Positions 26,611 to 28,315 of a DNA stretch of 64,000 nt are shown here, in pieces. The DNA is taken from contig CP064973.1 in assembly GCA_016699365.1 (NCBI GenBank), positions 429,684 to 493,683 of the forward strand, in the 5' to 3' direction. Both the position numbers and the translations under genes were made by a program. Position 1 is the stretch's first letter; every line of letters begins with the position of its first letter. Source of the DNA: Candidatus Nomurabacteria bacterium. GTDB lineage: Bacteria; Patescibacteriota; Minisyncoccia; Phycocordibacterales; UBA9973. The notes beneath the pieces were generated by a model. That model was not told the origin of the DNA. It ran no database searches and worked only from the letters and a program-made list of their open reading frames with translations.

Positions 26611-26645
26611 TTAAATCCCCCATATATATGGGGGATTTTTATTAT
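26611..26645. terminator. Terminator hairpin with A and T runs on both flanks, so it can serve the minus-strand AAA gene as well
   Basis: AAATCCCCCATATATATGGGGGATTTTT. Confidence 0.55.
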
Positions 26646-28315
26646 TTATGACGTGAAAAAGTTATCAATCTTTTTCCTGAGTCTTCTATTATCTCAGCAA
26701 TCTCATCATTGTGGTTTAAATCGAGATTTTGCTTGTAGAGATTTTCCACTGCTTCTTCAACATCACTTGCTTGAATACCTGTCTTTGTGTTGTTGGCTAA
26801 GTCTCTTTTCATTGCATTCGATATGGACATATCAACAGCAGAGACAATCATTGCTCCATTGCATATATGATGAAGAAAAAGATGACCCTCTGATTCTGTG
26901 TATTTTATGTCACACAACTTTAAGTCTTCACTAAAGAATTTTTCTACAAAAACTTTCGACAAATCATCTTCTGCTGAATTTGATTTTGGAATCTTTTTGA
27001 TATTCTTTAGGAAAATCTCGCCTGCACTTTTCTGATCAGGTCTAGTGATTTTGACTTTACGATCTATTCTACCGTCTCTTACAATAGCAGGATCAAGCAT
27101 GTCAGGTCTATTGGTAGCTAATATTATAAAAGCTCCAGAATCTTCAAGCCCATCCATTTCTGTCAGAAACATTGGTACTATTGTTTTTTCAACATCAGAA
27201 CTTACACCGGAGCCTCTTTTTGAAAGTATTGCTTCAGCTTCATCTATGAAAAGGGTGGCAGGATAGTTATATTGTGCATTGTGCTTACGGGCTCTATCGA
27301 AGATTTCTCGAATAGTTTCTTCAGCATTGCCAACATATTTATTTAATATCTCTGGGCCTTTTATATATATGAAACCACTTTTAAATCCTTTTTTATCGTA
27401 ATTTTTTGCCAGAGAAGTAGCAACTGCTTTTCCAAGCATTGTCTTGCCACATCCTGGAGGTCCATATAACAGAACACCCTTTGGCATTTTACGATTGTAG
27501 AATTTAAACAAATCAGGATTTTTGAATGGAAGTTCTACGAGCTCTATCATAAGCTCCTTGGCTTTATGTAGTCCTCCGATTTCATCCCAAGATACATTCA
27601 ATTCTTCGTTCAGTGAAAAATCTTCCTCACTCTTTCCTAAATTCTTGAGAATTATAGAAGAGGAGGGATCAAGTACGATGTGATCTCCTGATTCTGCGTC
27701 TTTGTTTATTTTCCCTGAAAAGACGACTTTCTTGGTTCCGGATATTTCCACTTCACAATGGTTTTCATCCATTAACTTTCGGAAGACGCATACAGGTCCA
27801 AGTGTTACTGTGGCTGATCTGTTTACAATTTGTTTTGTTTTAGAAGACAAGGTACAGACATCACCGGGTTCCACATCAATTAAAGGCTTGTTTATTTCAA
27901 GAAATTGCCCATTGATTACAATAGTGATTGTTTCCTTTTCTTCTTTTACTTCCTCAGTCAATTCTAATTCGAAAGATTTGTTTATTCCTCCGATGTCGAA
28001 ATTGTTTTTGTAACCATTTTCAAATTCAGCTTGTACGCATCCATTTAAATCAATTTCTTTGGTTACTTTTCCTTTTGTGTTTAAGTTTTTTAAGTAATCA
28101 GGATGAGAGATAGATAATCTAACTTCTTTTCCTAATGAAAAGTCTGATGGTCTGGGAAGTCTCTCAACAAGAGTTTTATTTCCTGTTTTTACAACAACAC
28201 AGTACTCAAGAGGGGAGCTAGAGATCGTGTCTATCAAATCGGCTTGAACTGCAATTTTCTTGCGAGCATTTTGTAATGCTTCGCGTAAAATTTCTATCAC
28301 TTGTTTAGAATCCAT
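26642..28315 (-). CDS. ARC/Mpa-family AAA+ ATPase (proteasome-associated-ATPase-like: coiled coil + double OB fold + AAA)
   Basis: Walker A [25 protein letters not shown], Walker B [56 protein letters not shown]. The pre-AAA block [24 protein letters not shown] and the N-terminal coiled coil/OB region match ARC/Mpa (Mpa, the mycobacterial proteasomal ATPase of the ARC family) architecture from memory. C-terminal ~100-aa extension. No GQYL-type tail. Confidence 0.65.
   Translation of the reverse strand: [557 protein letters not shown]

Follow-up and report, generated by a model that had tools for sequence, protein, structure and literature searches.

ARC/Mpa ATPases have been studied almost exclusively as gatekeepers of the actinobacterial Pup-proteasome system. 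Mpa recruits Pup through its N-terminal coiled coils, and residues 30-50 of Pup are the helix that forms a shared coiled coil with Mpa (PMC8755798). It also carries two OB domains (PMC8755798, PMC9599533) and a beta-grasp domain described as 'unique to Mpa homologues' (PMC9599533). Mpa binds the 20S proteasome through a GQYL motif at the C-terminus, with its penultimate tyrosine, carried on a flexible extension, and this tail is required for binding (PMC8755798, PMC9599533). The tail docks in the pockets of the 20S alpha-ring, and a hairpin of the beta-grasp domain also contacts 20S (PMC9599533). In Corynebacterium glutamicum, which has ARC and no 20S genes, the ATPase has been proposed to disassemble pupylated ferritin without degradation (PMC8223512). 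In this study, we analyzed an ARC/Mpa-like AAA+ gene in a 64,000-nucleotide stretch of a Candidatus Nomurabacteria bacterium genome (assembly GCA_016699365.1, contig CP064973.1, positions 429,684 to 493,683), hereafter the window. We found that its 557-aa product has the true ARC/Mpa architecture of coil, double OB, AAA and Mpa-type C-terminal beta-grasp, and that it is not a canonical proteasomal ATPase, with a family score below the cutoff, no GQYL tail and a place in an apparent sister clade that alters the picture given above. We consider it probable that the gene encodes a proteasome-independent, ARC-type hexameric ATP-driven unfoldase.

The open reading frame (ORF) was found at 26642..28315 on the minus strand (stop codon 26642-26644), with all the sequence blocks and the C-terminus ITFSRHK that the initial annotation had quoted. 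In NCBIfam, the proteasome ATPase model TIGR03689 was the best and the sole full-length match, aligning query residues 10-552 with profile positions 20-507 of 512 at 338.4 bits, which is below the equivalog cutoff of 504.75 bits. The CDC48, PAN, FtsH and CdvC models covered the AAA region alone (124-193 bits). The best single-stretch match in the PDB was Mpa (226 bits, query 162-551); the double-ring ATPases p97 and VAT had the top scores there because both of their modules match the one module of the query. Pfam gave a single AAA module (residues 281-424, E 1e-35) and nothing else in the protein. In an AlphaFold2 (AF2) model with a predicted local distance difference test score (pLDDT) of 76, residues 3-32 are helical and residues 37-227 are rich in beta structure (strands 123-227 in the OB part); an AAA fold follows, and the C-terminal part contains helices, a hairpin (466-480) and a final strand (550-555). 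A Foldseek search with this model gave nothing but Mpa chains in its first 30 places, with E from 1e-27 to 1e-23 and some 460 columns aligned, and Rpt subunits formed the second-best group (E about 1e-16). The ARC-family assignment made from the letters alone was therefore upheld by profile, PDB and fold searches, in all of which the best full-length or single-stretch matches were Mpa/ARC, not FtsH or Cdc48.

The N-terminal 235 aa searched alone against the PDB, as a single sequence with phmmer, gave no match. We found the homology at the profile level, where the N-terminal profile of the family aligned with the N-termini of genuine ARC proteins in hhalign (98.7% probability, E 2e-16, 147 columns). 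Window residues 3-47 (28175..28309; all parts of the gene lie on the minus strand) aligned with residues 98-142 of the ARC at locus L065, which cover the last part of the coil and the 'PP..Y' segment that leads into OB1; in the window protein these residues are the helix of the AF2 model and the entry 'SSPLEY'. Residues 128-230 (27626..27934), where the model places the OB strands, aligned with ARC 143-269, the remainder of OB1 and OB2. These alignments bear out the coil and double-OB parts of the full ARC architecture that had been proposed. Across the family, the coil residues L14, A17 and Q24 hardly vary. The N-terminal helix is homologous to the substrate-recruitment coil of ARC, and neighboring subunits would pair it into coiled coils.

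Between the two aligned segments, residues 48-127 (27935..28174) have no counterpart in genuine ARC and form a gap in the hhalign alignment. This family-specific insertion of about 80 aa in OB1 was modeled separately and gave a small SH3/Tudor-like beta-barrel (AF2 pLDDT 83). Its best fold matches were HECTD1 CPH and Mib-Herc2 (root-mean-square deviation 2.1 A over 65 columns, E 5e-3), and Pif1 SH3-like and Tudor domains were also found (all E >= 5e-3); the predicted likeness to SH3/Tudor domains is one of fold only. The AAA module occupies residues 243-440 (26996..27589), as placed by Pfam, the motif positions and the family alignment. It contains Walker A (GPPGCGKT, 285-292), the pore loop KYVG (326-329), Walker B (D358/E359), sensor-1 N402 and the arginines R413, R416 and R419. 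All catalytic residues are intact in the window protein and invariant across the family alignment.

The rest of the protein, residues 441-557 (26645..26995), is the helical lid and Mpa-type beta-grasp according to the Mpa and TIGR03689 alignments and the AF2 model. The initial annotation had taken this region for a different C-terminal extension of about 100 aa; it proved to be ordinary Mpa-type helical and beta-grasp structure, aligned up to Mpa residue 582 of 609 (query 551) and TIGR03689 position 507 of 512. Since the C-terminal region aligns with Mpa, only the flexible GQYL tail is missing, and the absence of this tail had been recognized correctly. The window protein ends in ITFSRHK right after the last beta-grasp strand. 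In the ARC of L065, the matching strand 'ERIVYIRTL' is followed by about 25 more residues that end in '...NLGQYL'. We found a penultimate tyrosine in 71 of 78 genuine ARC ORFs (GQYL in 62) versus 1 of 56 ORFs of the window's clade. Among 120 relatives from databases, not one has QYL at its end. The missing tail, together with an end directly after the beta-grasp strand, means that opening of the 20S gate in the known way is not possible.

To the window protein we found more than 100 full-length relatives at 40-53% identity, some of them in named lineages of the candidate phyla radiation (CPR), such as Kerfeldbacteria and Staskawiczbacteria. Many carry the JGI label 'proteasome-associated ATPase'. 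With genuine ARC, the window protein shares 34-42% identity across residues ~126-551. The family is small, since a search of 1.84 billion representative proteins with its specific N-terminal 240 aa found just 178 clusters, of which 47 reached E <= 1e-10. Loci were gathered by one family-specific DNA pattern, VPMFL[TA]EMDG, which gave 15 IMG/VR and 76 metagenome contigs; the 'viral' status of the IMG/VR contigs was looked into for a handful of them. Some contigs with the gene cassette described below carry phage DNA polymerase, primase/helicase, RtcB and amino-acid:DNA transferase, and the GC content of the cassette ranges from 0.26 to 0.61 across contigs. The family is therefore not specific to CPR, as it is also found on real phage contigs (GC 26-61%).

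In a midpoint-rooted neighbor-joining tree of 76 sequences, built without outgroup or support values, Pup-linked ARC (Actinomycetota, Nitrospirota, Rokubacteria, Methylomirabilales and others) formed one clade and the family formed the other. This topology suggests that the family is a small clade and the sister of Pup-linked ARC. Nested within the family, beside the cassette-bearing L087/L088, L089 and L146, are the window gene and L086, its relative with 86% identity. A scan of species genomes with the ATPase alignment yielded, among the matches listed, mostly actinobacterial ARC and one family member, and these became the ARC/Pup control set. At about 40 genuine ARC loci of this control, a Pup gene (product ending ...GGQ/GGE) lay no more than 6 kb away, and no prcAB, pup, dop or pafA was found in about 74 family loci.

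Several observations on individual family members stand apart from this argument. In the ATPases of L093/L124 (812 aa) and L110 (871 aa), some 300 extra residues separate GPPG from CGKT in Walker A, exactly at a point that corresponds to window residue 289, directly before a Cys; this P-loop insertion looks like an intein. On a CPR-like contig (L002/L003, 1-9457 and 12358-17094), the cassette lies in a mobile/defense island with a diversity-generating retroelement (bAvd and reverse transcriptase), Fic, RadC, a DNA methylase, an NgoFVII-type gene, Z1, Vsr and a serine recombinase. Another cassette lies in a metagenome-assembled genome labeled 'uncultured Gammaproteobacteria bacterium' (L006, the same as L004; CAYOCJ010000002.1, 513 kb), which suggests either a mislabeled bin or a family that reaches beyond CPR and phages. 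Deposited phage genomes gave only partial matches, to the AAA and C-terminal modules. One of these is the 'proteasome-associated ATPase' of Brevundimonas phage vB_BpoS-Polewnik (L180, ON529863.1 9811-11232), which has only the AAA and C-terminal (…ENRNLDH…) modules in common with the family; it has a Cys-rich N-terminus in place of the coil and OB domains, and no C-x-C or DUF1360 neighbors.

The relatives have a conserved set of downstream partners. Among non-redundant loci with at least 450 nt of downstream DNA (n=68), 48 encode a mini-protein whose last 15 residues include two or more Cys and whose gene begins no more than a few bases from the ATPase stop codon. In 40 of those 48, the next gene encodes a membrane protein with a CxxC..HW element. 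Unsupervised clustering of neighbors recovered a DUF1360-like cluster in 46 of 74 loci as well as mini-protein clusters, and no ligase, protease or proteasome gene recurred in it. Where present, the partners are almost always directly downstream (about 0-40 nt). The cassette was not recognized by PHROGs or PADLOC, which gave only generic AAA matches (IetA, TRIP13) and phrog_781. We also found no paper describing the clade or the cassette in a literature search, and both the tail-less, insert-bearing ATPase clade and the wider cassette appear to be undescribed; the cassette is the more interesting object.

The mini-proteins are 57-90 aa long, with a basic start, a Gly-rich stretch, the motif 'hP-x-hDDhLxEhDxxL' and an invariant terminal C-x-C. 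They gave no Pup or UBact match in Pfam and NCBIfam. We built a Pup profile from real Pup genes beside genuine ARC in the control loci, and hhalign aligned the mini-protein with it over Pup residues 30-50 (91% probability, E 1e-6), a resemblance that spans 21 aligned columns. The membrane partner is a three-transmembrane protein with invariant C51, Y53, C54, H57 and W58 after a positively charged loop, and it matches PF07098 (DUF1360; E 9e-7) and phrog_781. A hidden Markov model (HMM) of the ATPase N-terminal helix, run against 2,295 neighbor ORFs, hit only the C-terminal tails of DUF1360-like proteins (E 6e-11, 2e-8, 3e-7, 2e-5, 4e-5, 2.5e-3 and 0.02) and one ATPase fragment. These copies of the coil (e.g. 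...VQILREALQKARDKIVEQNETIQSL) lie in the cytoplasmic C-termini of L117, L132, L133, L127, L170, L087 and L099. That the tails of some of the membrane partners copy the ATPase coil argues for physical coupling through a shared coiled coil.

At several loci that seemed to have no cassette, the same N-terminal docking module is joined to a different C-terminal part. The module 'KKKK...VPxVDaaIDdIDnaL' and a globular domain of some 90 aa, for which Pfam gave no match, are fused in one protein in L102 (~9049-9459) and in L137, where its gene lies directly downstream of the ATPase; in L152, L140 and L100, the module is followed by internal Cys-rich segments. This suggests that the docking module is a portable, gene-encoded recruitment tag.

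An optional beta-rich protein of about 98-108 aa is encoded directly upstream of the ATPase in nine loci (L001, L002, L004/L005 and six others), with a 4-bp overlap with the ATPase in L001 and L002; it is not in the window. Its motif is …GFVVGSD…WKVRVKDP.SP.DG.K..VASV…GLNV.F.IGT.DD..GTKV.RAVDV, and it has no match in Pfam, NCBIfam, PHROGs or PADLOC. An amidoligase was considered as an analogue of PafA and rejected: Amidoligase_2 was found at one locus (L102), directly upstream of the ATPase, at 23.1 bits versus a cutoff of 22, and it does not recur. On this phage contig (L102, 61-6870), RtcB, ADDT (PF18724) and the marginal Amidoligase_2 precede the ATPase cassette, and they are probably a DNA-hypermodification module outside the cassette.

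The window copy has none of these partners. No Pup-like C-x-C mini-protein was found in the 64 kb window by tblastn, by motif or with an HMM of the docking module, which matched 48 downstream ORFs in other loci. A DUF1360-like CxxC..HW protein was likewise absent from the window by tblastn and motif search. The initial annotation had reported no prcAB, pup, dop or pafA nearby, and we confirmed that none is present in the window. The identical protein in NCBI, 'AAA family ATPase [Candidatus Nomurabacteria bacterium]', is on a 705,143-bp contig. A DUF1360-like profile search retrieved 21 proteins, several of them on contigs shared with ATPase matches and none on this contig, although the sensitivity of the search is limited. 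A single-sequence search for partners elsewhere in the genome, also of limited sensitivity, returned only the query.

In the place where relatives encode their partners, the window has nothing but two hairpins and a convergent gene 3' of the ATPase stop codon. The convergent gene (25974-26543, plus strand) encodes a 189-aa lipoprotein-like protein (MKKYLTLLVSFIFGLTAC...) with no Pfam match, and it is the strongest compositional outlier of the window (GC 0.474, GC3 at third codon positions 0.511, z about 3). The lipoprotein gene is also present in L086, which shares with the window the same partner-less order of a transmembrane protein, the ATPase and the convergent lipoprotein. We conclude that the window lineage lost both partners and has a GC-anomalous lipoprotein gene in their slot, and that the window copy is a derived orphan of the cassette family. 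The lipoprotein gene is probably a horizontally acquired replacement. The idea of a stand-alone unfoldase thus holds in that the protein is probably non-proteasomal and has no partner in the window; it did not foresee that relatives have a conserved partner cassette, which was lost here.

The ATPase gene is a monocistronic, self-contained transcription unit with its own promoter and terminator. A promoter scan found a sigma-70-type promoter, TTGACA-16-TATAAT, with a 12/12 match at 28340..28367 (minus strand), about 25 nt 5' of the ATG. An intrinsic terminator with an 11-bp stem and a T-run was read directly 3' of the stop codon (26613..26638, minus strand), and the second hairpin after it serves the convergent gene. 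Comparison of the window gene with its 86%-identical relative gave a dN/dS of 0.076 at a dS of 1.04, so the ATPase is under strong purifying selection. Its composition is like that of the host, as had been stated (GC 0.355 and GC3 0.278; means of the window genes 0.383 and 0.304).

The window itself is ordinary CPR core chromosome. It contains a lone 16S rRNA gene, RNase P RNA, SecA, GyrA, RNase J, HisRS, pyruvate kinase, class II ribonucleotide reductase and S1, and UppP and RsmE adjoin the ATPase. The complete 16S rRNA gene (8306-9856, plus strand) has no adjacent 23S or 5S gene, and unlinked rRNA genes are consistent with a CPR genome; RNase P RNA (14975-15309, plus strand) is 5 kb from it. 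Two overlapping ORFs lie on opposite strands, of which 28429-28734 (plus) encodes a 101-aa three-transmembrane protein that is kept in L086 and looks real, and the longer one, 28407-28778 (minus), is probably spurious. Further signal-peptide or lipoprotein-like genes without a Pfam match were found at 57717-58139 (minus), 10119-10724 (plus), 21025-22098 (plus) and 22261-23319 (plus), some with raised GC (0.42-0.46). Together with the gene at 25974-26543, these four may form one class of acquired surface proteins.

From its architecture, we can outline how the window protein may work. It would form a hexamer, and, as the homology with Mpa suggests, client recruitment would fall to coiled coils made by pairs of N-terminal helices from adjacent subunits. 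The double-OB ring with the inserted SH3-like barrel would form the pore entrance, and coil, OB ring and insert would recruit clients together. The KYVG pore loops would then thread the polypeptide. Since there is no 20S docking, clients would most likely be released unfolded or disassembled, without being degraded. In the ancestral cassette, the unfoldase would be tethered to the membrane. The mini-protein may dock on the coil in the manner of Pup, with its basic, Gly-rich N-terminus toward the pore as the likely threading end, and its C-x-C may be held at the cytoplasmic CxxC..H of the membrane partner by a shared metal site or a disulfide. The tail of the membrane partner would join the same coiled coil. 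We infer the docking of the mini-protein, the Cys-Cys or metal link and the cellular client. The window copy may now be a soluble stand-alone remodeler, or it may act on clients encoded elsewhere.

A wider interpretation of the clade is possible, and we put it forward tentatively. The clade may be an undescribed 'hard-wired Pup' system of phages and CPR that needs neither proteasome nor conjugation, in which unfoldase, mini-protein and coil-mimicking membrane protein would meet in a three-part coil; the Nomurabacteria gene would be a domesticated, partner-free derivative of it.

Several points weigh against the interpretation of the gene as a proteasome-independent unfoldase, or against the wider system. 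The inspected 64 kb are part of a contig that measures at least 705 kb, and partners or proteasome genes may lie elsewhere. The family was sampled with a bias, as its loci came from a single DNA pattern, and the tree is a midpoint-rooted neighbor-joining tree with neither outgroup nor support values. The hairpin that contacts 20S in Mpa is retained in the window protein. The Pup resemblance is short enough that it could be convergent. The first of these points leads to an alternative that we consider rather unlikely, namely that the system is kept and only its linkage is lost, with a Pup-like C-x-C mini-protein and a DUF1360-like protein, or other docking-module proteins, encoded elsewhere in the genome of about 0.7 Mb. 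In its favor are a docking coil that keeps the nearly invariant residues of the family, a portable docking module that occurs joined to other domains in L102 and L137, strong purifying selection on the ATPase, and the fact that the inspected DNA is only a part of the genome. However, no such ORF was found in the window by similarity, motif or HMM, none of the 21 DUF1360-like profile matches is on the 705,143-bp contig, and partners in relatives are almost always directly downstream. It is much less probable still that the gene is the ordinary proteasomal ATPase, with the other Pup-proteasome genes elsewhere in the genome. TIGR03689 as the best family, the JGI label of the relatives and the Mpa-specific beta-grasp would fit this explanation. 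Against it stand the score of 338 bits below the cutoff of 504.75, the position in an apparent sister clade outside Pup-linked ARC, the lack of a GQYL or penultimate-Tyr tail in the protein and its clade, when that tail is needed for 20S binding (PMC8755798, PMC9599533), and the count of none of about 74 family loci with prcAB, pup, dop or pafA versus Pup at about 40 ARC loci.

The neighboring genes have also been proposed to explain the ATPase. The initial annotation had suggested a membrane-remodeling or secretion module as its partner and had noted an abutting GC-richer island that encodes coiled-coil membrane proteins. The upstream enrichment in GC is only mild (z 0.7-1.7), and the true outlier is the lipoprotein gene on the other side. 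A Vps4/CdvC-like motor for the divergent coiled-coil, membrane and OmpA-like genes at 29002-32490 is suggested by physical adjacency, by the same arrangement in the 86% relative and by coiled-coil-rich proteins, yet we hold it to be quite improbable. Pfam gave no PspA, Snf7/ESCRT-III or secretion match for these genes; all that it reported was a coiled-coil match below threshold and a C-terminal domain of OmpA. A blastp comparison with the flanking genes of L004, where a PspA_IM30 operon is divergent from the ATPase, found nothing, and the arrangement is not recurrent in the clustering of 74 loci, so that the neighborhood is not kept in homologues beyond the 86%-identical relative. Vps4/CdvC was rejected for the protein itself as well: the CdvC model scored 138 bits versus a cutoff of 650 in the AAA region only, and the N-terminus is coil and OB, not MIT. 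The ATPase also has its own promoter and terminator. Finally, the gene could be decaying, left over from a phage-derived or mobile cassette and without a function in the cell today. In favor of this, the family is frequent on phage contigs and occurs in a defense/mobile island, and the partners were lost with a foreign gene in their place. We give this explanation very little credence. The low dN/dS at a dS of about 1.0, the intact full-length ORF in two diverged genomes, the intact catalytic residues, the perfect consensus promoter, the host-like GC and GC3 and the position among housekeeping genes all speak for a functional gene. Taken together, the absence of proteasome and Pup genes nearby and of the docking tail makes a non-proteasomal role, that of an ARC-type unfoldase, the best reading of the window gene.

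With this role, the clade would be a natural case of ARC-type unfolding uncoupled from degradation. It keeps the recruitment and threading apparatus, including the beta-grasp, without 20S tail, ligase or proteasome, and the automated labels 'proteasome-associated ATPase' in CPR and phage data would be misleading. The clade points to a membrane-associated unfoldase module borne by phages and CPR, and the window gene suggests that the motor alone is worth keeping in a reduced genome of about 0.7 Mb. The clade also bears on where Pup and the helix by which it binds ARC came from. Should the Pup-like helix be due to homology and not to convergence, the system could be a relative of pupylation or a relic of its precursor.

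Compared with known systems, two candidates were rejected on the AAA part. Cdc48/VAT/Cpa proteins are expected to have an N-domain and two tandem AAA modules and the window protein has one AAA module. FtsH is expected to have a transmembrane N-terminus and a C-terminal M41 metalloprotease domain, and its models reached 124-151 bits versus cutoffs of 600-1008 in the AAA region only, with no Peptidase_M41 match. PAN and Rpt1-6 share with the window protein the coil, OB and AAA module, but their OB domain is single, they carry an HbYX tail and they lack a beta-grasp, whereas the window protein has a double OB, a beta-grasp and no HbYX; the PAN models scored 146-186 bits versus cutoffs of 500-750, in the AAA region alone. 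The membrane partner of the relatives resembles DUF1360 (PF07098) in its Pfam match and its CxxC..HW element, and differs in that some cassette versions add a C-terminal copy of the ATPase coil. The literature on DUF1360 yielded two incidental mentions.

The mini-protein of the relatives is similar to Pup in size (about 60-80 aa), in its disordered basic/Gly-rich N-terminus and in the helix motif V/I-D-D-[VIL]-L-x-E-[IV]-D-x-x-L, which aligns with the Mpa-binding helix. Pup ends in GGQ/GGE, whereas the mini-protein ends in C-x-C, has no ligase or deamidase and is paired with the CxxC..HW membrane protein. The ATPase itself follows Mpa/ARC (TIGR03689; PDB 5kwa, 5kzf, 7px9) in its domain order of coil, two OB domains, AAA with an Ar-Hb-Gly pore loop, and lid with beta-grasp. 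Unlike Mpa/ARC, it has an OB1 insert of about 80 aa, a shorter coil, no GQYL tail and a score below the cutoff, and no pup, dop, pafA or prcAB lies near any family locus. The nearest precedent in function is the ARC of C. glutamicum and other Actinobacteria without 20S genes, also an ARC-type unfoldase without a proteasome, with remodeling or disassembly as its proposed output in place of proteolysis. However, those organisms keep Pup, PafA and Dop and recruit their clients via conjugated Pup. The window is without conjugation enzymes, and in the relatives the Pup-like helix sits in a gene-encoded C-x-C mini-protein, unlike the conjugated Pup of C. glutamicum.

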